Shown one piece after another: positions 141 to 14,573 of a stretch of 64,000 nt of DNA (within the stretch, counting starts at the first letter, position 1; every line of letters begins with the position of its first letter). This DNA is from Opitutia bacterium. Lineage in GTDB: Bacteria; Verrucomicrobiota; Verrucomicrobiia; Opitutales; T3Sed10-336. Below the pieces are notes generated by a model. The model was given only the letters and a program-made list of their open reading frames with translations, did not search any database and was not told the origin of the DNA. The position numbers and the translations under genes were made by a program. The DNA lies in contig JBJHCF010000008.1 in the NCBI GenBank assembly GCA_050506795.1, positions 1 to 64,000 of the forward strand, read 5' to 3'.

Positions 141-908
141 ATGACAACTGAAGCCGCCGTTCAGAATAACAAGCGAAGCAATCTTATCAAACTGTCCGCC
201 CTGGCGCTGGTGCTGGTCGGACTCTTTTTGCTGAGCCGTTTCCTGCCGGTCGGCGAGTGGCTCCAGGCATTCAACCGTTGGGTCGGAGAGCTCGGAGTGG
301 CCGGAGTGGCCCTGTACGCGGTGATTTACGCTGTCGCCACGGTACTGATGCTTCCCGGCGCGATTTTCACTCTGGGCGCGGGATTCGCTTTTGGGCTCGG
401 CTGGGGATTCCTGGCAGTGGTGGTCGGCGCAACGACCGGCGCCGCGCTGGCGTTTCTCATTGGGCGCTTCCTGGCGCGCGACAAGATCGAAGCCATGACC
501 CGCGACCAGCCGAAGTTTCGCGCCCTGGATAACGCCATTGGCAGGAAAGGCGCCCGTCTGATTTTTCTCCTGCGCCTCAGCCCGTTGATCCCCTTCAATT
601 TAAGCAACTTCTTCTACGGCCTCACCGCAGTGCGGTTCTGGCCGTACGTCCTGGCAAGCGGTATCGGTATGATGCCGGGAATCCTGGTCTATGTTTACCT
701 CGGCACCCTCGGGCGCGCCGGGCTGGAAACGGCGGCGGGAGCCGATACCGAACGCACGCCGTTGGAATGGACGCTGATGGTGGTCGGATTGATCGCGACG
801 GTGGCGGTCACGATCTGGATCTCCAAAATCGCCCGTCAGGCCCTGCGGGAAGCGGGGGAAAACGGAGTTACGACGGAGGTCGGTCTCGTCCAACAGGGCA
901 GAGATTAA
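141..908 (+). CDS. TVP38/TMEM64 (VTT/DedA, SNARE-associated-Golgi family) membrane protein
   Basis: Multi-TM hydrophobic protein with family motifs 'LPGAIFTLGAGFAFG', 'GRFLAR' and 'LLRLSPLIPFNLSNF'. ATG at 141. Confidence 0.9.
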   Translation: MTTEAAVQNNKRSNLIKLSALALVLVGLFLLSRFLPVGEWLQAFNRWVGELGVAGVALYAVIYAVATVLMLPGAIFTLGAGFAFGLGWGFLAVVVGATTGAALAFLIGRFLARDKIEAMTRDQPKFRALDNAIGRKGARLIFLLRLSPLIPFNLSNFFYGLTAVRFWPYVLASGIGMMPGILVYVYLGTLGRAGLETAAGADTERTPLEWTLMVVGLIATVAVTIWISKIARQALREAGENGVTTEVGLVQQGRD

Positions 909-1001
909 TGCGCCCCAGGAAGGCATGTCCTGTCCGCGCCGGCTTCTCTGTCGCATTCGCGCTGCGAGGGTCAAAACGGGTAAGCAGCGTACTTTCGCCG
1001 T

Positions 1002-1742
1002 TCATTTGCCCTTATCATTCCTCCTGCAACGGAATACCTCCACACCGACCATTTCATCGTTTTCGTCGAATTCGATCAGCAGGGGAAGTTTTTCGAGTAC
1101 GGCTTTGGGCAATTCGGAAACAAACGCCCCGGAAGGAGGTCGCTCGCCTGGTTTGTGCTTTTTCAGTTTCAGGTGAATCTGTAAATCGCCGAACGAACAC
1201 TCGACGCCGCCTTCTTCAATATCGACCAACCGCTCCGCGGCAACGGCAATGTCGAGATCGCCCTTGGCGAGCTGCTTCGAGCGGTAAGCGTTGTGGGCAT
1301 CAACCTTCGCTTTCGCGCCGTGAAACCGGATCGAATCTTCGAGAATCGAAGCTTGCTTCTTGTTGCGAAAGGTCTTCGTCGAGTTGGGCTTCACCCTGCT
1401 TCCAATGCGCTTCTGTCCATTCCGCGGCAACAAGAGCCAACGCTCCTCCACATCCCGCACGGTTCCGCACACCTTGCATGCCGTCCGCCCCTCTCGGGTT
1501 TTTCGCCAGCCTGCACGGTGCGGACACTGTAGGGACAGAAACTCCCACAATTCTCCGAGTTGCTGATAAATCTCTCCCATCCGCTCTCCCTCCTCGCCTT
1601 TGTCCAACGATGGATGCTTCGACACAAAGTCCATACTGAGAAAGAGCTGCTTGAACCGGGATTTGAGGTTGTCCTGTTTCGCTTTCATTGGGGGCGGAGA
1701 TGTTTCAGGTTTTGAAAGATTCGTTCGGTTGATGTTAGACAC
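1002..1742 (-). CDS. Hypothetical protein downstream of the RT, with a Zn-ribbon-like C-x-H...CxxC and a DUF2283-like C-terminus; candidate retron effector/accessory protein
   Basis: GTG start overlaps the RT stop (GGTGTCTAA); alternative ATG at 1688. Motifs 'QCPH...ACKVCG' and 'LLIEFDENDEMVGVEV'. Confidence 0.6.
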   Translation of the reverse strand: MSNINRTNLSKPETSPPPMKAKQDNLKSRFKQLFLSMDFVSKHPSLDKGEEGERMGEIYQQLGELWEFLSLQCPHRAGWRKTREGRTACKVCGTVRDVEERWLLLPRNGQKRIGSRVKPNSTKTFRNKKQASILEDSIRFHGAKAKVDAHNAYRSKQLAKGDLDIAVAAERLVDIEEGGVECSFGDLQIHLKLKKHKPGERPPSGAFVSELPKAVLEKLPLLIEFDENDEMVGVEVFRCRRNDKGK

Positions 1743-2595
1743 CGACTCCGGCGCGAGCTGATTTGCGTGTACTTAAAAGATTCCTGTTTCGGCGTTCAAT
1801 CGCACGAATGTAGCGGCGATATCCGATGGCCTGCGGAGAGTTGTGACCGTGTGTCAAAACACACTGCTGGAACTTGTCCAATGTTTTCTGGGCCGGTTTG
1901 ATCGAGTGGTTCACCCTCAGTCCCAGGTTTTCCTGTTCGTCGGAGCATTTCATTACCTTCGTCTTGCTGCCTTGAATCGCGAAGCCGTGGCGGCGAAAAA
2001 TCTTTTGGGCAAGCTTCAGTGTTCTTGCAAGTCCGATTGGGCCGCTGATGGTTAGGTCATCCACCCATAGCGTGAGATTACACCGTGGATCGATCGCTTT
2101 CAGTGCCTTCTTCAGGTCCAGAAACGCTGGCTCGATCGCCAGTCGAGCCAATCCCGGGCTCGACGGAGCTCCTTGTGGCAGAGCGTTTTTCCAAGTGACG
2201 ATCCTGACAAAATCCGATGCCATCTCCGGATCGTCCAATATCCGCTCGAAAATTCGAATCAACATCCGCCTTCTTACGGTTGGAAAGAAGTCGGCCAGAT
2301 CCATTGCAATGACAACCCGTTTTTCGACATGTGGGATCATCGCATCAACCGTCGAAGTCTTCGGCCTTCCCGCAATTTCCGGCGTGACCGAGATCTTGTT
2401 TATCTCGTCTTTCAACAGAGTCTGAACGGTTTTGAGTTTCCCGGAAGGTGCACTTATGACGCGATGCCCTCCTCCGGATTTGGGTTCGGCCCAGGTCCGA
2501 TACTGTCGGGGAGCACGCTTGGCCAGATTAGAGAACGCCTCGACGGTCATAGCGCACTTGCTGGCAATGAATGAGTTAACGCAGATTTTTTGCAT
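1735..2595 (-). CDS. Retron-like reverse transcriptase (RT domain only, ~270-290 aa)
   Basis: RT motifs 'PKSGGGHRVISAP', 'MDLADFFPTV', 'LPQGAPSSP' and catalytic 'WVDDLTISG'. Region X-like 'DAMIPH' and region Y-like 'QENLGLRV'. Start is 2595 (MQKI) or 2550 (ATGA-coupled to the upstream ORF). Confidence 0.9.
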   Translation of the reverse strand: MQKICVNSFIASKCAMTVEAFSNLAKRAPRQYRTWAEPKSGGGHRVISAPSGKLKTVQTLLKDEINKISVTPEIAGRPKTSTVDAMIPHVEKRVVIAMDLADFFPTVRRRMLIRIFERILDDPEMASDFVRIVTWKNALPQGAPSSPGLARLAIEPAFLDLKKALKAIDPRCNLTLWVDDLTISGPIGLARTLKLAQKIFRRHGFAIQGSKTKVMKCSDEQENLGLRVNHSIKPAQKTLDKFQQCVLTHGHNSPQAIGYRRYIRAIERRNRNLLSTRKSARAGVGV

Positions 2596-2993
2596 GGTAA
2601 CTTTCGGTAGAGAGAAATCAGGGGAAGGAAACCATTGTACCACAGCCATACTACAACACGTTCGAAAAGCGCCCTTGCGTTTCGCACGAGACGCTTTACG
2701 GACCTCAAGCCAAGCCAATCCAGAATCTTTGCCCGGTTGGCTTCGACCTGCAGCCGATCAATTACGCCGGTCAAAATCGCTCGGTCTTCCCGTGCCAGAG
2801 TCGACACGAGAAAGAGCCGTTCCAGATTTTGAACCGCGTCTTGATATTGGCCTGTCGACGTTGCCTTGACAGCTGAGTCCAACAGTCCCTTCCCCCTATA
2901 TCCTCCTCCCAGCCTTCGACTGACGCTCTTCAAATCATGAAGCGCCAGATCCACCCTGGGAGAGAATCGAGGGTGACCTATTTCCGTTTTCAT
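2547..2993 (-). CDS. Hypothetical 148-aa basic protein, first gene of the RT operon
   Basis: Strong RBS AAAGGAGG-taaat-ATG (MKTEIG...). Its stop forms an ATGA overlap with an in-frame RT ATG at 2550. Confidence 0.7.
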   Translation of the reverse strand: MKTEIGHPRFSPRVDLALHDLKSVSRRLGGGYRGKGLLDSAVKATSTGQYQDAVQNLERLFLVSTLAREDRAILTGVIDRLQVEANRAKILDWLGLRSVKRLVRNARALFERVVVWLWYNGFLPLISLYRKLPCKKSALTHSLPASAL

Positions 2994-3018
2994 ATTTACC
3001 TCCTTTCTGTTTAACGGA

Positions 3019-3240
3019 TTTGAAAAAGAAAGCGTCTCTGGGAGAATCAGCCATGCCCTTTCTAGGATCGCCGACTCAACGGGAGAGCACTTCGCCTTTG
3101 GACCCCACGTTTCGCGGGCCACGAGACCGGACCCAGGCCCGATAATTCCGGGTCTGAGACTTGCCTCGATCTTGTGCCGCCGGGCAATGCCGACGGGAGG
3201 AGGTGCAGCGGATGGTCATCCGTGACGATTCTTTCAAAGA
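3019..3240 (-). ncRNA. Putative structured RT-associated ncRNA (msr/msd-like leader)
   Basis: Terminal inverted arms 3224-3238 and 3019-3036 enclose about 5 hairpins (3209-3222, 3177-3196, 3130-3154, 3104-3118, 3057-3066). It lies between a predicted promoter and the RBS of the RT operon. Confidence 0.55.
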
Positions 3241-3248
3241 ACGAAATG

Positions 3249-3277
3249 ATTTGAGCAGATTTTGGAGATCTTGTCAA
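3249..3277 (-). promoter_or_regulatory. Putative sigma70 promoter for the ncRNA/RT operon
   Basis: Minus strand TTGACA (3277-3272), 17 nt, TCAAAT (3254-3249). The predicted TSS near 3242 is just 5' of the inverted arm. Confidence 0.45.
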
Positions 3278-3340
3278 CCATGTTTTGCTCTTGACGCACC
3301 ACGATATAACAAATGTCATAAAGCCTTAAAGAAATTAAAT

Positions 3341-6300
3341 GTGATAGGTAAAGGTCAAGAAAAAGAGCAATTTGCAGGCCGGCTTAAACAAATACGAGGT
3401 CGGCTGAGTCTCACACAACAAGCTCTAGCTGAAGAGCTTGGAGTATCATTTGCCACTGTCAATCGTTGGGAAAATCGCCAAACGAGGCCTTCTCGCATTG
3501 TCCTGGAGAAGATAGCGGCCCTTGAGGCGAGAACCCGCTCGGACCGTGCACATTCTTCCGGGGAGTCGGTTTCCCCGCATCCGGTCAATCTCGACTTTTC
3601 CGCAAATTCCGAGGTTATCCGGACGATCACGGAGGGGGAGAGGCTCGGTTTCGGTCATGCCGCGAATCCGGCCTTCGCCACAGAGATTTCCCGAATCGAC
3701 CCCCTGCCGCACCAGCGGATTGCCGTGTATCAAAAAATGCTCGCGAGTGAGCGCCTGCGATTTCTGCTCGCTGACGACGCAGGCGCCGGAAAAACGATTA
3801 TGACCGGTCTCTATCTCCGTGAAATGCTTTCACGGCGCCTGATCCGGCGGATTCTGATCGTTCCACCCGCGGGACTTGTCGGAAACTGGCACAGCGAGAT
3901 GGAGAAGCTTTTCAGCCTCGGCTTCACCATCGTTTCCGGAAACGACGCAGCAAAGGGTAATCCTTTTGAGGGGGAGGATTCGGATCGTGTCATCGTCAGC
4001 GTCGACAGCTTGAGGGGCAAGAGGCTCTTTGGTTGGCTTGCCCACGAATCCACCATACCCTATGACCTTGTCGTCTTTGACGAAGCTCACAAATTGTCTG
4101 CCGACCAGCAGGCGGATTTTCGTATCAAGAAGACCAGCCGTTACGAACTGGCGGAGGCGCTGGCCGGGGTAAGCGATTGTTCGGAACAGTGGAAGCTTCC
4201 CTGGAGCACGAACCACCTGCTCTTGCTGACTGCCACCCCCCACATGGGCAAGGATTATCCCTACTACGCGCTCTGGCGATTGCTTCTGCCCAATCAGCTT
4301 ACGACGATCGAGGCGTTCAACGAGTTCTCAAAATCCGTCCGGGAGCACCATTTCATTCGTCGCACCAAGGAGGAAATGGTCCATTTGGATGGCCGCCCCC
4401 TCTACCCGACACGGAGATGCGATACTCTTGGATTCGACCTCACCGCCGGCGACGAAGGCGAGCAGGTTCTCTACGAAAAAACAACCGCTTACCTAAAGCA
4501 TGTTTACAACAAAGCCAAGATGCTGAATCGCTCGGCCGCGAAGCTGGCTATGAGCGTATTCCAGCGCCGACTTGCCAGCTCGACCTATGCGCTGTTGCGT
4601 TCGTTCGAACGGCGGATGGAAAAACTGGACGCACTCATCGAGCAGCTTCAGCAGGGCGTTCTCTCCGTGGAGGAGATGAATCGCCTCCAAAAGAAGCGAT
4701 TTGCCGTCGACTCGGATGTCTTCGAGTCAAAAACCGCCGACGAGGAAATCGAAGGTGAATCGGAGGAAAACGAGGTCGGTGAAGTCGAGCTTCTTGGTTA
4801 TTTTGTCGCCGCATCCCTTCGGGATTTGCTGACCGAGCGTGAAGAAGTAAAGACCCTGCTCGATCTGGCAAAAGCGGTTCACGAGACAGGCATGGAGTCC
4901 AAGTTTGAGAAACTGCGGGAGATTTTGATCGAACCCTCCTACGAAAACGAAAAACTCATCATCTTTACCGAGCACAAAGATACCCTCGACTACCTGATCC
5001 GCCGGCTGAACGGCCTGGGATACACAGGCAAGGTGGCCCAGATTCACGGGGGCATGCACTACACGGAACGAACGGCGGAAGTCGAAAGGTTCCGCAGGGA
5101 CCACGATGACGGCGGGGCGCGTTTTATGGTTTGTACCGATGCGGCGGCAGAGGGGATCAACCTCCAGTTCTGCTGGATCATGATCAACTACGACATCCCC
5201 TGGAATCCCGCTCGTCTGGAACAACGCATGGGGAGGATTCACCGCTACGGTCAAAAACATGATCCCGTCGTCATCCTCAATCTTGTCGCCCCCAGGACCC
5301 GGGAGGGACGCGTATTGAAAACGCTCCTCGAAAAGTTGGAGCGCATTCGGAAACAGCTCAATTCGGACAAGGTGTTCGATGCCATTGGGCGGGTTTTCGA
5401 GGGTGTTTCGATCCGCGACTACATGGAACGGATCGTCGAAACCGGCGACGCCGACGCGGTCCAGTCCGATATAGAGGGCAAACTGACCAAGGAACAGATC
5501 GAAGCGTTAATGGTAAAGGAAGCTACCCTTTACGGCAGCGGTGGCGATGTGAAATCGAAGTTGCCGGAATTGCGAGCGGCGATGGATCGTGAAACCTACT
5601 TCAAACTTCTTCCGGGCTATGTTCGCAGCTATTTCGAAAAGGCGGCGCCCCTCGCGGGCCTCCGGATTCACGATGACGGATCCGGCACTTTCACTTTGAG
5701 TCCGGATCCAAAGCAAAGAAGTGCTGTGCAAGACCGGATATTCTCCGAAGCGAATGCGGAAGAACAAAAGTTTGCCTTCGTGAAGCCGAAAGAGGGAGAG
5801 CACGTTGTCTGGCTGCATCCGGGTGAGCCCATCTTTGAGAACTTCCGCGAGGATTTTAAAAGGGCTCACCACCAAGATTCCCTACGCGGCGGCGTGTTTA
5901 TCGACCCGAATGCCGCCGCCCCCTATTTGTTTCATCTGGCCCGTATTACGATTTTCCGGAGCGCGGATCCCGAGGTGCTGGAACTGGCGCGTGAGGAGAC
6001 CATTGAATTCCGGCTGGTCGGACTGAAGCAATACGAAGGTTCCGAAATAGAAATCTGTCCGCTGGAACACCTTCTCTTGTTGCGGGGAACACGCGGAATC
6101 CCGAAAGGGGCTCAGATTCTGGCGGCGGAGGCCAAGAATTTGCGTGAACAGGCAAGCGCATACCTCATGGAGCGAAACGTCCGCGAGTTGGCGCTCTCGC
6201 ACAAGAGGCGTCTTGAGGCCACGTTGGCCGAAAGGGCCGGAACGATCGAACGCGGCTTCGCTTTTCAGACGGCCGAACTGGCCAAGACACGGGCCAAGCT

Positions 6301-6913
6301 TTCCAAGAAGGCCCGCGAAGGAAACAAGTCCGCCCAAATCGACCTGGAGGTCATCAAGAAGCGTCAGCGCACTAAGGGCGAACGTCGCGAACAAGCGCTT
6401 CGCGCCATCCGTCGCGAACCGGCTTTGATCAAATGCGCTCCTGTTGAATTCATTACCCATGCGCTCGCGGTTCCATCGAACGATCCCGTCGAACGGGAAC
6501 GGCACGAGGCCGATGTCGAACAGGTCGCGATGAACCTCGCCTGGGCCTACGAGAAATCATCCGGCGCCATCGTTAAAGATGTCCACACCCCGCCGCTGGC
6601 CCGGGCCGCCGGGTTGGGTGACAATCCGGGATTCGACCTCCTTGCCACCTATCCGAACGGAGAAGAACGCTGCATCGAAGTCAAAGGGCGGGCTCGGACG
6701 GGTGACGTAGAGGTGACCCGCAACGAATGGGCGAAGGCCTGCAACCTGGGCGACCGGTACTGGCTTTACGTCGTTTACAATTGCGCGACTCCGGCGCCCC
6801 AGATGGAACGCGTACAGGATCCGTTTCTTAACATTCTCGCGAAAACCAAAGGAAGCCTGCTGATCGACTCCAGGTCCGTGATCGACGCTTCCATCAATGA
6901 GGCTCCAAAATGA
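3341..6913 (+). CDS. XRE-HTH / SNF2-family helicase / DUF3883 (PD-(D/E)xK-like) fusion
   Basis: HTH 'LTQQALAEELGVSFATVNRWEN'; Walker A 'LLADDAGAGKT'; 'VFDEAH'; 'LLLTATPH'; 'EGINLQ'; 'WNPARLEQRMGRIHRYGQ'; C-terminal 'GFDL...RCIEVKG'. Probable GTG start at 3341. Confidence 0.92.
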   Translation: MIGKGQEKEQFAGRLKQIRGRLSLTQQALAEELGVSFATVNRWENRQTRPSRIVLEKIAALEARTRSDRAHSSGESVSPHPVNLDFSANSEVIRTITEGERLGFGHAANPAFATEISRIDPLPHQRIAVYQKMLASERLRFLLADDAGAGKTIMTGLYLREMLSRRLIRRILIVPPAGLVGNWHSEMEKLFSLGFTIVSGNDAAKGNPFEGEDSDRVIVSVDSLRGKRLFGWLAHESTIPYDLVVFDEAHKLSADQQADFRIKKTSRYELAEALAGVSDCSEQWKLPWSTNHLLLLTATPHMGKDYPYYALWRLLLPNQLTTIEAFNEFSKSVREHHFIRRTKEEMVHLDGRPLYPTRRCDTLGFDLTAGDEGEQVLYEKTTAYLKHVYNKAKMLNRSAAKLAMSVFQRRLASSTYALLRSFERRMEKLDALIEQLQQGVLSVEEMNRLQKKRFAVDSDVFESKTADEEIEGESEENEVGEVELLGYFVAASLRDLLTEREEVKTLLDLAKAVHETGMESKFEKLREILIEPSYENEKLIIFTEHKDTLDYLIRRLNGLGYTGKVAQIHGGMHYTERTAEVERFRRDHDDGGARFMVCTDAAAEGINLQFCWIMINYDIPWNPARLEQRMGRIHRYGQKHDPVVILNLVAPRTREGRVLKTLLEKLERIRKQLNSDKVFDAIGRVFEGVSIRDYMERIVETGDADAVQSDIEGKLTKEQIEALMVKEATLYGSGGDVKSKLPELRAAMDRETYFKLLPGYVRSYFEKAAPLAGLRIHDDGSGTFTLSPDPKQRSAVQDRIFSEANAEEQKFAFVKPKEGEHVVWLHPGEPIFENFREDFKRAHHQDSLRGGVFIDPNAAAPYLFHLARITIFRSADPEVLELAREETIEFRLVGLKQYEGSEIEICPLEHLLLLRGTRGIPKGAQILAAEAKNLREQASAYLMERNVRELALSHKRRLEATLAERAGTIERGFAFQTAELAKTRAKLSKKAREGNKSAQIDLEVIKKRQRTKGERREQALRAIRREPALIKCAPVEFITHALAVPSNDPVERERHEADVEQVAMNLAWAYEKSSGAIVKDVHTPPLARAAGLGDNPGFDLLATYPNGEERCIEVKGRARTGDVEVTRNEWAKACNLGDRYWLYVVYNCATPAPQMERVQDPFLNILAKTKGSLLIDSRSVIDASINEAPK

Positions 6914-6937
6914 GTTTCCCGGCTGTCAGTAAAGGAG

Positions 6938-7834
6938 GTGGCTGTGTATTTTTTCTATTTTGATGAAAGCGGCTCGCGCGATCCAAAGGTCGAGGGTCAG
7001 GATAAGGGAGGGTCAAATTTCGCCAAGGACCACCTTTATGTGCTGACCGCCTTGAGCCTCTACGAGAAGAAGTGGGCCGCGTTCGATCAAGAAATCAGTG
7101 CGCTCAAACTTCGCTTGAGAACGAAACTCTACCGCGAGAAACAAATCGAACTGCCATCGCTTGCCGATTGCGAAGTCAAATCCACGAGCCTGCGCCTGAG
7201 CAAATCACCAGGGAAGAAGGGGTATAGCCCGTTTGTCCACAACCTCGACGACTCGGAAAAGACCACGCTTTCCGAGTTGTTCTTTTCGCAGTTGGCCAAA
7301 CACAACATGCGGCTGTTCGCCGTTGTGATCGATAAACGAAAGCTCCGCGACCACATGACCGGAGAGCAGATGCATAAGAAGGCCTACGAGTTGTTGCTTG
7401 AGCGGATCGAACACTACCTCTGGGAGTACTACCCGAAGCACGGCGGGTTGATTGTGATGGACGATACGCAGAAGCAACTGAATCACGCAGTCGCCATGAA
7501 ACACGCCTGGTTCCAGCGGGACGGGAACGCGAATCTCCGCTTCAAACACATTATCGAATACCCGTTTTTCACCGACAGTCGGCTTTCAAACGGCGTTCAA
7601 CTCGCCGATTTGTGCAGTTACAACATCTACCGGGCCTTTCGAAGCGGGGACTTCACCTATCCCTACTTTGAGAAACTGCTGCCGCATTTTTACCGGTCCC
7701 GGCGCACGGGCGACGGCAAACTCGATGGTCTCAAAGTATTTCCGGATGATTCTGAATTGATCCAATTCGCCGCCGACGGATACCGGGAATTCCAGGCTCT
7801 GGACACGAAAAAGCCCGCCGAGGAGGCGGGCTGA
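6938..7834 (+). CDS. DUF3800 family protein (predicted RNase H-like fold)
   Basis: N-terminal 'FYFDESG' and C-terminal 'DSRLSNGVQLADLCSY'. RBS AAGGAG overlaps the GTG region. Confidence 0.85.
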   Translation: MAVYFFYFDESGSRDPKVEGQDKGGSNFAKDHLYVLTALSLYEKKWAAFDQEISALKLRLRTKLYREKQIELPSLADCEVKSTSLRLSKSPGKKGYSPFVHNLDDSEKTTLSELFFSQLAKHNMRLFAVVIDKRKLRDHMTGEQMHKKAYELLLERIEHYLWEYYPKHGGLIVMDDTQKQLNHAVAMKHAWFQRDGNANLRFKHIIEYPFFTDSRLSNGVQLADLCSYNIYRAFRSGDFTYPYFEKLLPHFYRSRRTGDGKLDGLKVFPDDSELIQFAADGYREFQALDTKKPAEEAG

Positions 7835-7889
7835 AAAAAATGAAACTGGGCTGGGATGACCATATCAAGCCTGCGTGAGGCACCCAGTT
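7812..7889 (+). ncRNA. Possible structured RNA / terminator 3' of the DUF3800 gene
   Basis: Hairpin AGCCCGCC-GAGGA-GGCGGGCT (7812-7832), then stem AACTGGG (7844-7850)/CCCAGTT (7883-7889) enclosing GCCT-GCGTG-AGGC. Confidence 0.4.
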
Positions 7890-7939
7890 ATGCTCGAAAG
7901 TTCGTCTATTTCTCGGTCATAGTCAAGAAAGATTTATCC

Positions 7940-10900
7940 ATGAACGACACACCCAGGCTCATCGAACACGCATTCCCGCTCGAACAGGCGTCACTTAACT
8001 CGGTGCACGAGAAGAACGTCCGTCACGGCCACATCTCGACGCTACACATCTGGCCGGCTCGGCGGCCGCTCGCGGCCTGCCGGGCCGCCCTCCTCGCCAC
8101 GCTTCTCCCGGATCCCGGGGATGAAAAGAAGCGACAGGAACTCTGCGAAAAGATCGGCGGAAAGTTCGTTGAGGTGAGAAAGCGCAAGAAGAAGCCCGAC
8201 GGAAGCATAGAGGAGCGCGTCGCCCGGGAGACGCACGGAGGCGTGCTCCACTGGCACGGGCAATCCCGGACTCCGGAGGAATGGAAGTCCGCCCGGCAGC
8301 ATGAGACGGACCTGGAATGGTTTCGCCAGGAAATCCGCAAGGTGTACGGGCGCGCGCCCAAAGTGCTCGACCCCTTCGCCGGGGGCGGCGCCATTCCACT
8401 CGAGGCGATGCGCCTCGGTTGCGAAACGACCGCCGTAGACATCAACCCGGTCGCCTGGTTCATCCTCAAGTGTACGCTGGAATACCCGCAGAAGCTGGCC
8501 GGGCAGCGGAAGCGTCTGCCCGACTTCGCGCTGAAGGACCGGGGGTTCATGGAAGACTATTTCAAGGCGATTCCCGGCAGCGATGGGCGTCCCAAGTACC
8601 GCACCCGAAAACAGTTGGAGGACCGTCTGCGTCAACACTTCGGCGAATCCCCAGCCAAACGCGGAAAGGCCCGCCAGGAGCAGGCCGAGTTCAACGACGA
8701 CCATCCGGACTGGAGCGAAGAAGACCACGGGCACGGCGAGGAACTGGAGGCCGATCTCGCCTGGCACGTCCGCGCCTGGGGGCACTGGGTACTGGCCGAA
8801 GCGCGCAAGGAACTTGCGCCGTTCTACCCGACCTACGCCGATTGGGAACCGCTGAAACCCGGACAAAAGCAGTACGAGAAACAACCCATGCGCCTCGTGC
8901 CCCTCAAGGAAGACGGCACACTCAACATGGACGCCCTCAACGGAAACCTCGGCGACGATTATCTGGAGGACAAAACCAATCCCCGCTGGGTGGCGAAGCC
9001 CACCGTCGCGTACCTCTGGGCTCGGACCGTCCAATGCAAGGACTGCGGCGCCACCGTCCCGCTTCTTAAAACCCGCTGGCTCTGCAAAAAGGATCGCAAG
9101 CGCGTGATGCTGACCATGGAATCGTTGGGGCGGGCAAATGGCGTTAACTTCGGGATTGAGAAGAATGTTCCCTCCAAAGGTGGCAACGCGGCGCAGAAAC
9201 GGGAACACGATAAAAAGATCGGAGCCGGGACTATGTCGCGGTCGGGTGCGACTTGTCCTTGTTGTGGAACCACACACACAATGGAAGACATTAAGGTATA
9301 CGGTTCTCAGAGCGAATCCGGCGAATGCTTAACCGTGGTAGTAACTGATGGTCCACACGGAAAAGAATACCGTTTGCCAACCAAACATGAAATACCAGCG
9401 TCACGGAATTTGGAGAATCTATTAGGTCAAATTTATCAAGTAATCCCACGTCATTTACCCAGTGAAAAAATCGTTGAAGATGCCAAAAGGAACACTTGGT
9501 GCGTTCAGCATGGAATAACTGAGTTTAATAAACTTTTCACCAACCGCCAACTGTTAGCCCTCGGTATTTTTGCGAAACATATTCGAACAATTGAATCGGA
9601 CTTCCATCCTGAATTAATAAGAAGTTATTTGGTTTGTGTATTTGGTAAACTTCTCGATTATGAAAACAAATGTACCTCTTGGTATTCACAGAACGAACAA
9701 ATAAGCCACCTGTTTAAACGTTTCGCGTTGCCTATGCTATGGGACTACACAGAAGCATCGCCGATCGGAGGTGCTTCTGGGAGTTGGAAATCAATGCTAA
9801 ACTCAGTAACCAAGGCTGTCGATACAGCTGTAAAATATTCTGCTGATCTTGAAGTGCCCTGCATTGAGAATAGATCGGCGATCTCATTTCAGTATCAGAA
9901 CTTCGATCTAATTATCACTGATCCACCGTATTACGATGCCATCGGGTATGCCGCTGTAATGGATTTCTTTTATGTTTGGCTAGCGCGATTAATAGGCGAC
10001 TACGACAAAAATTATGCTAGCGTATTTTCTGATCAACTATCTCCGAAGTGGAATGAGAACACGAAAGACGGAGAGCTTGTTGATGATGCGAGTCGACACG
10101 GAAATGACAAGGAAGCTTCGAAGAAGGCGTACGAAAATGGAATGGCATTAGTATTCAGGAATTGCTGCGAATCACTCGTTCCATCAGGACGATTTGTTGT
10201 TGTATTTGCAAACAAGAATCCTGATGCATGGGAGACTTTAGTATCTGCAATTATTAGAGCCGGCTTTGTCGTAGATGGAAGTTGGCCAATCCAAACGGAG
10301 ATGGCAAATCGTGCTCGTGCACACAGCTCATCCGCTCTCGCCTCCTCCGTCTGGCTCGTCTGCAAAAAGCGCCCTACTACCGCCCGCCCCGGCTGGGACA
10401 ACACGGTGCTCAACGAGATGCGTTCTAACATCACCGAAAAACTTCGCAACTTCTGGGATGCCGGGATTCGCGGCCCAGACTTTGTGTGGGCGGCGACGGG
10501 ACCCGCGCTGGAGGCTTACAGCAAACACCCCATCGTCAAGAAGGCGGATGAACCGGGCAAATTGATGACGGTGTCCGACTTTCTCGTCCACGCCCGGCGT
10601 ATGGTCGTCGATTTTGTGGTGGGACAGGTGCTCACGGGCCGGGAGAGCGATGAGGCCGATCTTTCGGCCGCGGACCGCTTGGACGAGCAAACCGCCTACT
10701 ACCTGCTTCACCGGAACGATTTCGGCTTCAATGAAGCGCCGACCGGGCCGGTTATTCTCTATGCGGTTTCGTGCGGGATGACCGATGGCGAGCTGGTCGA
10801 TACCTGGAGTCTTCTGGCCCGGGTGGGTAAAAAGTCCGCCGACGGCGATGAGGAGGACGACGATCCGGATTCCGATTCGGATACCGAAGCGGATTCAGGG

Positions 10901-11212
10901 AGCAAGGTAAAGTTGAAGACGTGGCAACAACGCAATCACAAGAGCCTCGGACTGGAGGCACCTAAAGGGCGAACAGTTCCGTTGATCGACCGCGTTCACC
11001 GGCTCATGCATCTCTGGAAGGCGGGGGATCTCACCAAGGTGAACGATTACATCGACGAGCACGGACTCCGTCGCAACGAACTCTTCAAGCGAGTGGTGCA
11101 GTCCCTGATCGAACTCTCGGAGGGGGGAAGCAGCGAACGGGCGCTCCTCGAAAGCATCAGCAACCACATTGGCGCAAAAGGCGCTATTGCACAGCAGACG
11201 CTGGACTACTAG
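7940..11212 (+). CDS. DUF1156-domain amino (N6-adenine-type) DNA methyltransferase with Zn ribbons
   Basis: 'LHIWPARRPLAACRA' (DUF1156), SAM-binding 'VLDPFAGGGAIPLEA', catalytic 'TDPPYYD', CxxC pairs. ATG at 7940. Confidence 0.92.
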   Translation: MNDTPRLIEHAFPLEQASLNSVHEKNVRHGHISTLHIWPARRPLAACRAALLATLLPDPGDEKKRQELCEKIGGKFVEVRKRKKKPDGSIEERVARETHGGVLHWHGQSRTPEEWKSARQHETDLEWFRQEIRKVYGRAPKVLDPFAGGGAIPLEAMRLGCETTAVDINPVAWFILKCTLEYPQKLAGQRKRLPDFALKDRGFMEDYFKAIPGSDGRPKYRTRKQLEDRLRQHFGESPAKRGKARQEQAEFNDDHPDWSEEDHGHGEELEADLAWHVRAWGHWVLAEARKELAPFYPTYADWEPLKPGQKQYEKQPMRLVPLKEDGTLNMDALNGNLGDDYLEDKTNPRWVAKPTVAYLWARTVQCKDCGATVPLLKTRWLCKKDRKRVMLTMESLGRANGVNFGIEKNVPSKGGNAAQKREHDKKIGAGTMSRSGATCPCCGTTHTMEDIKVYGSQSESGECLTVVVTDGPHGKEYRLPTKHEIPASRNLENLLGQIYQVIPRHLPSEKIVEDAKRNTWCVQHGITEFNKLFTNRQLLALGIFAKHIRTIESDFHPELIRSYLVCVFGKLLDYENKCTSWYSQNEQISHLFKRFALPMLWDYTEASPIGGASGSWKSMLNSVTKAVDTAVKYSADLEVPCIENRSAISFQYQNFDLIITDPPYYDAIGYAAVMDFFYVWLARLIGDYDKNYASVFSDQLSPKWNENTKDGELVDDASRHGNDKEASKKAYENGMALVFRNCCESLVPSGRFVVVFANKNPDAWETLVSAIIRAGFVVDGSWPIQTEMANRARAHSSSALASSVWLVCKKRPTTARPGWDNTVLNEMRSNITEKLRNFWDAGIRGPDFVWAATGPALEAYSKHPIVKKADEPGKLMTVSDFLVHARRMVVDFVVGQVLTGRESDEADLSAADRLDEQTAYYLLHRNDFGFNEAPTGPVILYAVSCGMTDGELVDTWSLLARVGKKSADGDEEDDDPDSDSDTEADSGSKVKLKTWQQRNHKSLGLEAPKGRTVPLIDRVHRLMHLWKAGDLTKVNDYIDEHGLRRNELFKRVVQSLIELSEGGSSERALLESISNHIGAKGAIAQQTLDY

Positions 11213-11234
11213 TAAATGGCGAAAGGATAAAACA

Positions 11235-14200
11235 ATGCCGAAATTACCATGGAAGCCCTGGCACGAAGTGGTCGCTTTGCGCGACGATCTGAAAACGGGC
11301 GAGCTTTCGCTCAGTCTCTTCGCCGCCGATCTTTACGAAGTGCTCATGCAGAGCGGCAAGCGGCCGGTCTATGAACATGCGGAGGAATTCTTCGCGCTCA
11401 CCTATCCCACGCATAATTTGCGGACCCTCGTGCGCGACGTGGCGCTGCGGATCGCGGGGAAAAACGACAAGGCGGTCCGGCAACTGGAGCTCACTTACGG
11501 CGGCGGCAAGACGCATACCCTGATCACGCTGCGCCACCTGCACCACGATCCGGCCAACCTGCCGAACGTGCCCTCGGTCGCGGAGTTTAAGGAGGAAATC
11601 GGTGAAACGCCCACGCGTGCGAAGATTGTGGGGCTCTGCTTCGACAAGATCGACGTCGAAACCCCCATTGAGGCAAGGGGACCCGAGGGGGAGGAGCGAA
11701 AGTTGCTCCAGCCCTGGAGCTTCCTCGCCTACCAGTTGCTCGGTGATGAAGGGTTGAAGATTCTTCACAAGGACGGAAAGGCGGAAGAACGGGTCTCGCC
11801 GCCTTCGGAGTTGCTGATCACCAAGCTGTTCGATGCGGCCACGGCCAATGGCGACGGTGTGCTGGTTCTGCTCGACGAGGTGATCGCCTATGCCCGTCAA
11901 AAGATCAATCTGGATGCCAAGTGGGAGAGCATCATGGAAGACTTTTTTCAGTTTCTCACCCAGGCGGCAGGAAAAACGAACCGGTGCTGTATCGTCGCGT
12001 CGATCCTGGCATCCGACGTGAAATACCAGGATGCCGTCGGCAATCGGCTTCGGGACAAGTTCTACGCGATCTTCCAGCGACAACGGGAAGAGGCGATCGA
12101 ACCCGTCGAGAAGCGGGATGTCGCCGAGGTGCTGCGCCGTCGCTTTTTCAAACCGGAATCCATCCGGGACGTTGCAAGCTTCAAACCCCATGTGATCGCG
12201 GCGCTCAAGGGAGTTATCGAAGCCGACGACGAGACCCGCCGGAATCAAGCGGACGCGGAGGACCGCTATCTGCGGAGCTATCCATTCGATCCCGAGCTTA
12301 CCGATGCCTTTTATTCCAAATGGACCTCGATCAATGGTTTTCAGAAAGCCCGAGGCGTACTCCGGGTCTTCGCTCTGGCGATTCGCGAGGCGGCCCGGTG
12401 GGACACCAGTCCGCTCATCGGCGCGGGGGCCTTTCTGCGTGAACCCGAGGAGGAAGGTCTCTCGAACGCGGCTCATGAGTTGGTGACGATCGCCGACGGA
12501 CAGGATACCGAGGGCAAGCGGGCAAACTGGACGGGTATCCTGACGAGTGAGATTGGTCGGGCGAAGAAGATTCAGAACGACTCGATCGGACTGGACTCAC
12601 GCGAGATCGAAATCGCGGCATTTGCAACCTTCCTGCACTCCCAGCCCACGGGCCGGTCGGCACGACTGCGCGACCTGATCCTGTTGCTCGCGCCTTCCCG
12701 GCCCGACAAGATTGAGCTGGAAAAAGGGCTGAAGCGATGGGCCCGCATGAGTTTTTGGCTGGATGATCGTCACACCGCGAACGCGGAAGAGAAGCTTCCC
12801 GAAACATGGGCGCTGGGCAATCGCCCCAATCTGAATCAAATGCACGCAAAGGCGGCTGCGGAAATCGACGGGGATGTCGTGAAGGCGCGTCTTCTCGATG
12901 AAATCGGCAAAGCAAAGGATCTGACGCGTGGCGCCTCCGCCAGCGGAGTCCGCGTTCACACACTCCCGCAGAAGCCCAAGGACGTCGAAGACGACGGCGA
13001 TTTCCATTACGCCATACTCGGCCCCGACGCGACCTCCGAATCCGGCAAGCCGAGCGCGGAGGCCACCCGATTTCTCAATGAAACCACCAGTGCGGAGAAG
13101 CCCCGGGTGTATCGAAATGCAATCATCCTGCTTACCCCGACCAGGGACGGGGTTGAGTTGGCCAGAAGTGCGATACGTGACTACCTCGCTTGGGAGCAGG
13201 TGCGCACCGACTTGAAGGACGAAAGCGATGACGGCCAGGTCGACGTGGCGCGCATGCAGACGCTGGCAATCCGTGTGAAGGAAGCTCAGGGCAAAATCAG
13301 CGGCGCGATTTATCAGGCGTACAGCACGGTGGTGACCATCAACGAGAAAAACGAACCTCACGCCTTCAAGCTGTCGATCAGCGACGAGCCGCACTTCCAG
13401 ATCATCAAGAACGAGCCGCGGTCCCGGATAAAAGATACGGCGATCAATGCCGAGTCGCTTCTCCCGGGTGGTCCCTACGACTTGTGGAATGAGGGTCAAA
13501 CGACGAGGCGTGTCAAAGATTTGACCGGCGCTTTTGCTCAGCTTCCAAGGCTTCCCAAGATGCTCAAGGCGGAAACGATTCTGGAGACACTTGTGGATGG
13601 ATGCAAAAACGGCGCCTTTGTTCTCAAACTTCGAAGACCGGACGGTTCCGAGCGATCATGGTGGTTCTCCACCCCGGACGACAACGCGCTTAAAGATCCG
13701 GCTCTGGAGCTGGTTCTGGCGGACAAATCCGAGCTAGTCGAAGTCGACCCGTCGTTGATCGCAAAGGACAAACTCCCCGGTCTCTGGAACGAGTCCGAAA
13801 TCACGGTGCAGGACGTGTACGACTATTTCAAGGGCGAGCACGTGATCCAGGTGACGAAAGGTGAATACGAGGAACCGCTGATCATCCCAATGGCACATCA
13901 GACAGTCGTTGATAAAGCCATCAAGGCCGCCGTCGAAAAAGGTGACGTCTGGCTCATCAATGGTCCGACCAGCATCTGCGGCGAAGAAGTCGCTCCCGGG
14001 ATATTAAACGCCAAGGCAACGTTACTTCCGCCCCCGGAGCCCATTAGCGTTACGGACATACTCCCGGAGGTGTTACCTGAAGCTTGGGCTGAGGGAAAGG
14101 CCAGCGCATCCGCAATTGCTTCCGCGCTCGCGCAAAAAGCAGGCAAGACACTTCCGTGGAAGACGGTCGAGGCTGTTATCACACAATCGATCAACAACCG

Positions 14201-14573
14201 CTACTTGAAATTGAGCAATAAATCCGCGGAATGGCCCTGCGACTTCTCCGGAGCAGAAAAGGTTACCCTGGAAGAAACCGGACAGGAGGCTAAAAAGGAC
14301 GATTCCGTCGAAGAAGGGAGTTCCAAGCATTTCGCCTCGGCAGTTGTCGACCTGGACGATGCCCAAGACCTTCTCGACACCCTGGCCAACGAAACCGTAC
14401 CAACACTCCTCGAAATCAAAGCGAAAAGCGGTGTCGCAATGAAGATTCGTATACGAATCGAACGCGACGCCGAATCAGGAGAATTGACAGCCGAAACCAC
14501 CGCAGAGATCCGAAAAGCACTGAAGGCCGCCTCAGGAGAGTTCAAGGTGAATCACTCAACCAGCGCCCATTAA
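11235..14573 (+). CDS. DUF499 family AAA+ ATPase
   Basis: 'KPWHEVVALRDDL...FAADL', Walker A 'YGGGKTH', Walker B 'LVLLDE', 'YPFDPEL'. RBS GAAAGGA before ATG 11235. Confidence 0.9.
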   Translation: MPKLPWKPWHEVVALRDDLKTGELSLSLFAADLYEVLMQSGKRPVYEHAEEFFALTYPTHNLRTLVRDVALRIAGKNDKAVRQLELTYGGGKTHTLITLRHLHHDPANLPNVPSVAEFKEEIGETPTRAKIVGLCFDKIDVETPIEARGPEGEERKLLQPWSFLAYQLLGDEGLKILHKDGKAEERVSPPSELLITKLFDAATANGDGVLVLLDEVIAYARQKINLDAKWESIMEDFFQFLTQAAGKTNRCCIVASILASDVKYQDAVGNRLRDKFYAIFQRQREEAIEPVEKRDVAEVLRRRFFKPESIRDVASFKPHVIAALKGVIEADDETRRNQADAEDRYLRSYPFDPELTDAFYSKWTSINGFQKARGVLRVFALAIREAARWDTSPLIGAGAFLREPEEEGLSNAAHELVTIADGQDTEGKRANWTGILTSEIGRAKKIQNDSIGLDSREIEIAAFATFLHSQPTGRSARLRDLILLLAPSRPDKIELEKGLKRWARMSFWLDDRHTANAEEKLPETWALGNRPNLNQMHAKAAAEIDGDVVKARLLDEIGKAKDLTRGASASGVRVHTLPQKPKDVEDDGDFHYAILGPDATSESGKPSAEATRFLNETTSAEKPRVYRNAIILLTPTRDGVELARSAIRDYLAWEQVRTDLKDESDDGQVDVARMQTLAIRVKEAQGKISGAIYQAYSTVVTINEKNEPHAFKLSISDEPHFQIIKNEPRSRIKDTAINAESLLPGGPYDLWNEGQTTRRVKDLTGAFAQLPRLPKMLKAETILETLVDGCKNGAFVLKLRRPDGSERSWWFSTPDDNALKDPALELVLADKSELVEVDPSLIAKDKLPGLWNESEITVQDVYDYFKGEHVIQVTKGEYEEPLIIPMAHQTVVDKAIKAAVEKGDVWLINGPTSICGEEVAPGILNAKATLLPPPEPISVTDILPEVLPEAWAEGKASASAIASALAQKAGKTLPWKTVEAVITQSINNRYLKLSNKSAEWPCDFSGAEKVTLEETGQEAKKDDSVEEGSSKHFASAVVDLDDAQDLLDTLANETVPTLLEIKAKSGVAMKIRIRIERDAESGELTAETTAEIRKALKAASGEFKVNHSTSAH

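Follow-up and report, generated by a model that had tools for sequence, protein, structure and literature searches.

A rare retron-type reverse transcriptase with a candidate helical partner and a structured leader, beside the Hma system of an Opitutia bacterium

The locus and its reverse transcriptase

Contig JBJHCF010000008.1 of an Opitutia bacterium, of which we analysed the first 64,000 nucleotides (nt; hereafter the window), carries a set of retron-like features, all on the minus strand: a promoter-like site, a structured leader and three open reading frames (ORFs), namely ORF1, a reverse transcriptase (RT) gene and ORF3 (Table 1). A first-pass annotation, made without database searches, had described the locus as one operon with an RT and two partner genes, placed head-to-head with a restriction-like operon; PADLOC identifies the latter as an Hma system. 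The database proteins, the genomes and the metagenome or genome loci compared with the window are labelled with P-, G- and L-numbers, respectively.

Table 1. Features of the window discussed in the text, with the basis of each assignment.
Feature	Position	Strand	Basis
Promoter-like site: TTGACA 3277..3272, 17-nt spacer, TCAAAT 3254..3249	3249..3277	minus	read from sequence
Structured leader, candidate retron-type noncoding RNA (ncRNA)	2998..3226	minus	minimum free energy (MFE) and ensemble folds, G445 comparison
Leader 5' hairpin	3226..3205	minus	predicted fold
Leader closing helix P0: anti-SD ACCUCCU with SD AGGAGGU (SD, Shine-Dalgarno)	3204..3198 and 3004..2998	minus	predicted fold
Leader hairpin P1, 20 nt	3196..3177	minus	predicted fold
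Leader hairpin P2, 47 nt	3168..3122	minus	predicted fold
Leader hairpin P3, 23 nt	3121..3099	minus	predicted fold
Leader hairpin P4, 74 nt, long, msd-like	3098..3025	minus	predicted fold
ORF1, 148-aa helical-bundle candidate RT partner	2547..2993	minus	fusions, gene adjacency in relatives
Retron-type RT, 286 aa, WVDD box	1735..2595	minus	Pfam, PADLOC, PDB profiles
ORF3, 228-aa zinc-ribbon protein	1002..1688	minus	start set by homologues
DedA/VTT membrane-protein gene, convergent on the operon	135-908	plus	Pfam
Divergent Hma defence operon	3161..14573	plus	PADLOC and Pfam
HmaA	3161-6913, true start uncertain	plus	PADLOC
DUF3800 gene, between HmaA and HmaB	6938-7834	plus	Pfam
HmaB	7856-11212	plus	PADLOC
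HmaC	11169-14573	plus	PADLOC

The RT had been called retron-like on first inspection, and the database searches bear this out. Its ORF matches Pfam RVT_1 (3.6e-19) and 50 PADLOC families, of which the 25 listed consist entirely of retron RT models, with RT_VI (8e-40, 134.9 bits) and RT_III-A (1.6e-39, 133.9 bits) at the top. When the PDB is searched with a profile of six members of the RT family, Ec86 RT comes first (5.6e-24), followed by Ec67, Kva2, Ec78 and Ec83; each of the 12 best matches is either a retron RT or an unnamed RNA-directed DNA polymerase, and a group II maturase appears only at 2.7e-7. The NCBIfam model for the retron St85 RT reaches 104 bits, below its cutoff of 235. By these matches, the RT is of retron type. 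We also aligned the six family members with two NCBI-annotated St85-family retron RTs from plasmids. Region X (NAXXH) reads (D/H/S/T)AMxPH in the family, with a His that is invariant in 8/8 aligned sequences, and region Y (VTG) reads NLG, with the Gly present in five of the six members and replaced by W in G445, the genome with the nearest complete RT locus. Mestre et al. (PMC7736814) single out this His and this Gly as the residues best conserved in the two retron motifs. The catalytic box is WVDD, WIDD or GVDD across the family.

Within the retrons, the RT appears to fit no described type, because the top PADLOC model changes from one relative to the next, at 108-156 bits: it is RT_VI for the window, P0044 and P0046, RT_III-A for P0048 and P0047, and RT_X for G445. 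RT_VI is ahead by 22 bits for P0044, and for the window it stands at 134.9 bits against 133.9 for RT_III-A. The doubt voiced in the first-pass annotation about the type is hence upheld by the PADLOC models, both on the window and on its relatives. The clade also appears to be rare. Only four proteins, the window's own included, match the RT at E<=1e-30 in a collection of 5.8 billion, and at the same threshold a sample of the class yields one genome in 401, again the window's own (0/400 others). In the phylum sample, the threshold of E<=1e-20 is passed by 7/401 genomes, with G242 (36% identical) as the best apart from the window's own, and in the order sample 11/401 genomes match P0044 at E<=1e-15, only G445 and G439 closely. 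The RT of G445 is 47% identical to that of the window, and the RT of G439 is cut by the contig end. Among plasmid records, 59 match P0044, all at less than 60% identity and in the RT part only.

The gene boundaries required some revision. The 148-aa ORF first described is present at 2993..2547 and starts with an ATG behind a strong SD, AAAGGAGGT. The open RT frame extends on the same strand from 2718 to 1735. The N-terminus of the RT, MQKICVNSFIASKC, aligns with MKRINCNYFIDNIC in P0044, MRKICCQSFIENRC in P0048 and MRKLNCQHFISQRC in G445, the aligned starts reading MQKICVNSF in the window and MKRINCNYF, MRKICCQSF and MRKLNCQHF in the others. Given this alignment with two fused relatives (described below) and with G445, the RT most likely starts at ATG 2595, which makes the protein 286 aa long, its gene overlapping ORF1 by 49 nt in the -1 frame. 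A third open frame extends on the minus strand from GTG 1742 to 1002, and an ORF of 246 aa that overlaps the RT stop, as originally proposed, is obtained only if GTG 1742 is taken as the start. Many of the 40 homologues of ORF3 begin at or near a Met that matches ATG 1688 (MKAKQ...), and a start there appears likelier; ORF3 would then have 228 aa and follow the RT stop after a 46-nt spacer, without overlap, its end at 1002 being confirmed. Of the overlapping junctions that had been reported on both sides of the RT, the ATGA stop/start overlap at 2550-2547 does exist in the sequence, but the RT start has moved to 2595 and the ORF3 junction has become a 46-nt gap.

In the promoter-like site, the TTGACA and TCAAAT hexamers and their 17-nt spacer are present, but a consensus promoter scan made zero minus-strand calls at the locus, which we attribute to the weak -10 hexamer. 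In an alignment of the leaders, a GTTGACA box is kept at the same relative position in G445.

A helical partner protein and a structured leader

Pfam, PADLOC, NCBIfam and PHROGs contain no match to ORF1, whose close homologues number only two; P0042, another member of the family, keeps the same 148-aa stop. An exhaustive phmmer search with ORF1 over 1.84 billion representatives added one further relative, P0044, and this is a fusion protein of 404 aa: its first 128 residues match ORF1 (E 4.4e-9) and the rest is an RT of the same clade (2.1e-46 against RT_VI of PADLOC). A second in-frame fusion, P0048 (406 aa), came from the RT search, and its N-terminus resembles ORF1 with a pairwise E of 3e-10. 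Since full-length identity between the two fusions is only 37%, the fused form of ORF1 and RT is an old and maintained state and no artefact. Separate but overlapping genes occur in the window and in two further genomes. The ORF1-like gene of G445 (E 1.1e-5) precedes the RT gene and overlaps it by 116 nt, and in G242 a 142-aa ORF overlaps the RT start and matches the hidden Markov model of ORF1 weakly (E 0.0027, in a small ORF set). The G242 pair is found at L089 3799-5047; its RT has a YVDD box and its small ORF is helical. No ORF1 was found in G439, the metagenome-assembled genome (MAG) of L001, where the RT runs into the contig end. On the strength of the two fusions and of the overlapping gene pairs in the window, G445 and G242, we take ORF1 to be a genuine partner of the RT, as far as sequence can tell.

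The AlphaFold model of ORF1 is a helical bundle (pLDDT 76) with helices at 12-28, 35-46, 50-63 and 68-119. Foldseek finds no significant match for it, and VIA-wide matches it to many four-helix bundles. Against 8ub7_B, which is Avd in the bRT-Avd complex, the model scores Z 9.2 (root-mean-square deviation 2.7 over 88 residues), and VIA-wide also returns 2rld_A (Z 8.7) and 2gsc_A (Z 8.4), all three values lying in a range that is common for helical bundles. We take 2rld_A and 2gsc_A to belong to the Avd-like 23S rRNA intervening sequence family. Avd, the accessory protein of diversity-generating retroelements (DGRs; PDB 8ub7 chain B, Bbp7 of BPP-1), does resemble ORF1 in being a small helical bundle encoded just upstream of an RT, which ORF1 would likewise bind. 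The two are nevertheless unlike in sequence, as hhalign gives the ORF1 family a probability of 0.1% against BPP-1 Bbp7 and ORF1 has no Pfam match, and Avd partners a DGR-type RT whereas the RT of ORF1 is retron-type. We suggest that Avd be regarded as a functional analogy for ORF1 and not as a relative. ESM Atlas clusters of DUF1800 proteins scored 0.90-0.91 with ORF1, with only 87-101 features in common, and were rejected as chance. A complex prediction for RT, ORF1 and ORF3, with ORF3 as the partner, scored 0.00 and gives no verdict.

About 245 nt separate the TTGACA box from ORF1, and the structured leader that had been noted there is borne out by the predicted folds. After a 5' hairpin, a closing helix (P0) is predicted to enclose four hairpins, P1 to P4, the last of which is followed by a 21-nt single-stranded tail, and the 3' arm of P0 is the SD of ORF1. 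The leader of G445, folded independently, shows the same anti-SD/SD closing helix and hairpins of 19, 49, 25 and 74 nt, as compared to 20, 47, 23 and 74 nt in the window, with an 8-nt linker of identical length after P1. Identity between the two leaders amounts to 53% of aligned columns, and P1 differs between them by two compensatory GC>AU pairs. In the ensemble, the SD is paired with a probability of 0.85-0.99 in the window and of 0.75-0.85 in G445, whose leader fold has a z of -3.9 against shuffles. Among 300 dinucleotide shuffles of the G445 interior, 50 fold into some four-hairpin form and none matches the domain lengths of the window to within 4 nt. An RNAalifold analysis based on a MAFFT alignment of the two leaders misaligned P2-P4. 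A search of Rfam over 800-3500 gave only chance-level matches (best E 0.32). A conserved xGC follows the 5' repeat, but it falls inside P1 in the MFE fold. A 7-nt direct repeat, CUCCCGU (3185-3191 and 3075-3081, minus strand), lies after the anti-SD and in the 5' arm of P4; it recalls the msd/riboregulator repeats of type VI retrons, is absent from G445 and was set aside as chance. Retron ncRNAs have, according to Mestre et al. (PMC7736814), inverted repeats at their ends, between one and three msr hairpins and a single long msd stem-loop, and the modelled leaders of both the window and G445 would fit this description. Neither the SD-sequestering leader nor the evidence from ORF1-RT fusions was foreseen in the first-pass annotation.

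These features can be assembled into a mechanism, of which whatever goes beyond gene content, the fusions and the predicted RNA structure is what we infer. Transcription would begin near 3240, downstream of the conserved TTGACA box, and the leader would fold in an msr-msd-like manner, with a1/a2-like inverted repeats closing three msr-like hairpins and the 74-nt msd-like hairpin, as predicted at two loci. Because the 3' repeat is also the SD of ORF1, and hence predicted to be sequestered, each RNA would be either folded as a template, with translation off, or opened and translated, the two states being mutually exclusive. Synthesis of ORF1 and RT would in this way be tied to the state of the ncRNA, with the RT made by translational coupling through the 49-nt overlap. 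The two proteins would form a complex, as the two in-frame fusions and the three overlapping gene pairs suggest, in which ORF1 serves the RT as a subunit or N-terminal domain, and this complex may then copy the msd-like hairpin into multicopy single-stranded DNA (msDNA).

ORF3 and the extent of the module

On balance, we lean towards the view that the locus holds a rare, unclassified retron-type module composed of a structured leader RNA of ~205 nt, ORF1 and RT, with ORF3 probably outside the conserved core. A number of observations weigh against it. The leader fold of the window is unexceptional (z = -1.7 against shuffles), the leader of G242 has no comparable fold (z = -0.28), and the leader comparison rests on two loci, the window and G445, between which a crude structure-aware alignment shares only 28 pairs and leaves P2 and P4 out of register. 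No branching G could be assigned in the leader, and none of the sequencing runs searched was an RNA run containing the locus. The retron motifs are degenerate (xAMxPH for NAXXH, NLG for VTG) and the Tyr of the YxDD catalytic box is replaced by W, or by G in G445. Finally, a retron without an effector would be incomplete, and ORF3 may be the real effector here: it is co-oriented with the RT and lies 46 nt past it with no predicted terminator between them, the RT/ORF3 junction is kept in a near-identical strain from a soda lake and in L001, an orthologous MAG locus, and retron cassettes are known to capture free-standing effectors (PMC7736814).

In the protein collection, the ORF3 family comprises 40 members at 44-80% identity. 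They share a C-x-H...C-x-x-C zinc ribbon and an invariant FHG motif, and their C-terminal half is conserved and beta-rich. DUF6255 matches ORF3 marginally (25.6 bits against a cutoff of 25), over profile positions 2-28 of 70 and thus in the zinc ribbon only, and at E<=1 it matches 34/40 family members; DUF2283, considered for the C-terminus, matched one member of 40 at E 0.13 and was dropped. The AlphaFold model (pLDDT 62) has no Foldseek match in the PDB at E<=0.001, and VIA-wide was deemed uninformative (best Z 5.2, with GntR effector-domain-like folds at about 4). A search of the PDB with the ORF3 profile returned GATA zinc-finger noise (E 0.017), the ESM Atlas gave no usable match, and none was found in PHROGs or on plasmids. 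On viral contigs, 41 stretches match the ORF3 pattern and none encodes a relative. The ORF3 profile has no match in the 400 other genomes of the phylum sample.

In metagenomes, ORF3 relatives are encoded on 216 stretches, and we examined the best 80 of these. When searched by tblastn with the window's RT and ORF1, 0/80 loci show one or the other gene beside the ORF3 homologue; upstream sequence of at least 300 nt is available at 68 of these loci, of at least 600 nt at 54 and of at least 900 nt at 40. A Pfam search of 65 of the 110 listed neighbour ORFs found a single RT, in L001. This is not an independent case, because L001 is the orthologous locus in a related Opitutales MAG (G439), with the same DedA/VTT neighbour and an ORF3 that is 79% identical. 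The other neighbours include TOTE AEP primase, DNA methylase, HSDR_N, ParE, PIN, SNF2+SWIM helicases, RAMP, ORF6N and rhodanese. Past the RT of G445 there is no ORF3, and a convergent SDR-type gene is found there instead. As the RT accompanies ORF3 at 0/80 loci and ORF3 is absent beside the RT of G445, we read ORF3 as a member of a horizontally mobile, normally free-standing family, which stands behind an RT in this narrow lineage only and is here probably either an independent neighbour within a defence island or a recently captured effector.

Some further observations concern ORF3. A 78-aa C-terminal remnant of a second copy, closely resembling P0003, lies elsewhere in the same genome (G000:C56, L110 1498-1734, minus strand), next to a putative pair of a DUF2384/Xre-type antitoxin and a RES-domain toxin and with no RT nearby. 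In one ORF3 subclade (L078, L080, L081 and L082), a SNF2 and SWIM-finger helicase of ~805-808 aa stands upstream and a 381-aa protein without Pfam match downstream, and the helicase, ORF3 and the 381-aa protein could be a separate conserved three-gene system. Contigs from soda-lake metagenomes carry pieces of ORF3, RT, ORF1 and part of the leader (window 900-3092) at 90-99% similarity, one of them spanning the RT/ORF3 junction; the habitat differs from the likely source sample, which was mine tailings.

The strongest alternative to the leader-ORF1-RT module is a true tripartite retron, in which ORF3, a toxic effector captured from its free-standing family, is guarded or controlled by the ncRNA and the RT, ORF1 being an accessory. 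We regard this as a serious possibility, though short of probable. The placement of ORF3 just behind the RT, with no minus-strand terminator-like site called, speaks for it, as do the persistence of the arrangement in L001 and across the contig of the soda-lake strain and the occurrence of ORF3 homologues among genes of defence and toxin-antitoxin type (TOTE AEP, PIN, ParE, SNF2+SWIM, RAMP, HSDR_N), and it is established that msr-msd-RT cassettes take up stand-alone effectors in a modular way (PMC7736814). Nevertheless, L001 and the soda-lake strain amount to one orthologous locus, G445 has no ORF3 and the other 80 ORF3 loci have no RT. Moreover, while ORF3 has homologues at 60-63% identity (P0005, P0006), no RT of the same clade was found at a comparable distance, where the RT search yields four proteins at E<=1e-30. 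The original picture of one three-gene operon with two partner genes is at odds with a family that lacks the RT at 80/80 loci and is missing in G445. Its other elements hold better: neither partner resembles a known effector, as there is no match to any retron effector model in PADLOC, Pfam or NCBIfam, and the suggestion of an undescribed retron subtype can stand for the core of ncRNA, ORF1 and RT, its extension to ORF3 being unproven.

A second alternative accepts the leader but not its role as template. Some defence-associated RTs act template-independently, and the leader might be a translational-control 5' untranslated region that sequesters the SD and does nothing else, with ORF1-RT using another template or none. 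No predicted feature of the leader is stronger than the SD pairing, there is no match to an Rfam retron family, the RT is atypical in region X, in region Y and in the catalytic box, and G242 combines an ORF1-like gene and an RT with a leader that lacks a comparable fold. We still consider this unlikely, in that a preserved four-hairpin interior with a 74-nt hairpin exceeds what the masking of an SD would need, the layout agrees with the retron ncRNA description in PMC7736814, and the close sequence relatives of the RT are all retron RTs.

Least of all do we favour a recoded fusion, in which -1 ribosomal frameshifting on a six-A run at the RT start (gcAAAAAAtc, 2586-2595, minus strand, probably a coincidence) would make ORF1 and RT as one polypeptide here: the RT frame is indeed -1 relative to ORF1 and the run sits exactly where a -1 slip gives a product colinear with P0044 and P0048, but P0042 retains the same 148-aa stop, the RT has its own ATG, conserved with an internal Met of both fusions, and a conserved programmed frameshift is improbable because the frame relation, -1 in the window, is +1 in G445, where no slippery run is visible.

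Known retron types and the defence neighbourhood

The module of leader, ORF1 and RT that we prefer shares a good deal with retrons in general. Its RT is most similar to retron RTs and keeps the region X His and the region Y Gly, its upstream RNA is likewise predicted to carry inverted repeats at its ends, with three short hairpins and a long stem-loop, and the locus likewise lies in a defence island, beside an Hma system. It departs from them in the catalytic box (YxDD there, WVDD, WIDD or GVDD here), in a predicted 3' inverted repeat that is also the SD of the first gene, and in its conserved partner, a helical protein that is fused N-terminally to the RT in some members and matches no PADLOC effector. 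No conserved effector is evident in this family, and ORF1 has no recognisable effector domain. We know of no described retron type with such an N-terminal RT partner.

The nearest comparison is with type VI, whose RTs fall in clade 3. Retrons of this type are organized in the order SP-HTH-RT, with a helix-turn-helix (HTH) gene upstream of or overlapping the RT (bioRxiv 10.64898/2026.04.27.721009). Retron-Vpa2 has a hybrid RNA that combines the msr-msd with the coding sequence of a toxin; the ribosome-binding site of this sequence is sequestered, and release of its translation depends on msDNA (bioRxiv 10.1101/2025.10.22.683967). For Retron-Sen3, post-translational control is reported instead (bioRxiv 10.64898/2026.04.27.721009). 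RT_VI is the top PADLOC model for the RT of the window and for P0044 and P0046, a small upstream gene that overlaps the RT is common to both systems, and both have one transcript that joins a structured RNA to a coding sequence with a sequestered ribosome-binding site, although here the sequestration is predicted. On the other hand, the HTH protein of type VI is of the Cro/C1 kind and neither ORF1 nor ORF3 has an HTH match (Pfam E<=1, PADLOC); the 75-79-aa SP toxin of type VI has no counterpart that we found here; the masked gene is a separate toxin there and the RT partner itself here; and RT_VI is not the best model for P0048 and P0047 (RT_III-A) or for G445 (RT_X). As to the partners of other types, neither ORF1 nor ORF3 matches the PRTase and winged-helix proteins of III-A, the IHF/VHL membrane protein of X or the SWIM/ARM proteins of XIII (PADLOC E<=1, Pfam). 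A full-text literature search for retron RNAs that sequester a ribosome binding site returned Vpa2 as the only natural retron, and neither "Verrucomicrobiota" nor "N-terminal" occurs in the main text of the SPIRE retron survey, as far as that text is accessible (PMC13712802).

Retrons are classified by RT clade, ncRNA shape and effector, and this locus would add a rare RT clade with a constant helical companion that also occurs naturally fused to it. The association of ORF1 with the RT points to a two-subunit retron RT, comparable to the DGR RTs with Avd, and the overlap between terminal repeat and ribosome-binding site provides a simple and testable link from ncRNA folding to synthesis of the enzyme. 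To our knowledge, translational control by a retron RNA has so far been shown for type VI retrons only. ORF3, for its part, does not look like a retron-specific effector; it belongs to a widespread orphan family, with more than 200 loci in variable, defence-like neighbourhoods. A bolder proposal, to which we give less credence than to the tripartite retron, is that the locus represents an undescribed retron lineage in which the RT needs an Avd-like subunit, separate here and fused in relatives, in which the 3' priming repeat doubles as the SD, so that folding competent for priming and translation of the enzyme shut each other out and the riboregulated system becomes self-limiting or released by a trigger, and in which the captured ORF3, from an uncharacterised zinc-ribbon family, is a new stand-alone defence or toxin gene.

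The defence context of the RT locus is confirmed by the adjoining Hma system, which is complete by PADLOC: HmaA (4.3e-158), HmaB (1.2e-116) and HmaC (9.2e-66) are encoded by consecutive plus-strand genes. HmaA has an HTH_3 domain at its N-terminus and a NOV_C domain at its C-terminus. Type VII retrons, too, have DUF3800, as their effector domain; the DUF3800 gene found here belongs to the Hma operon and not to the RT operon.

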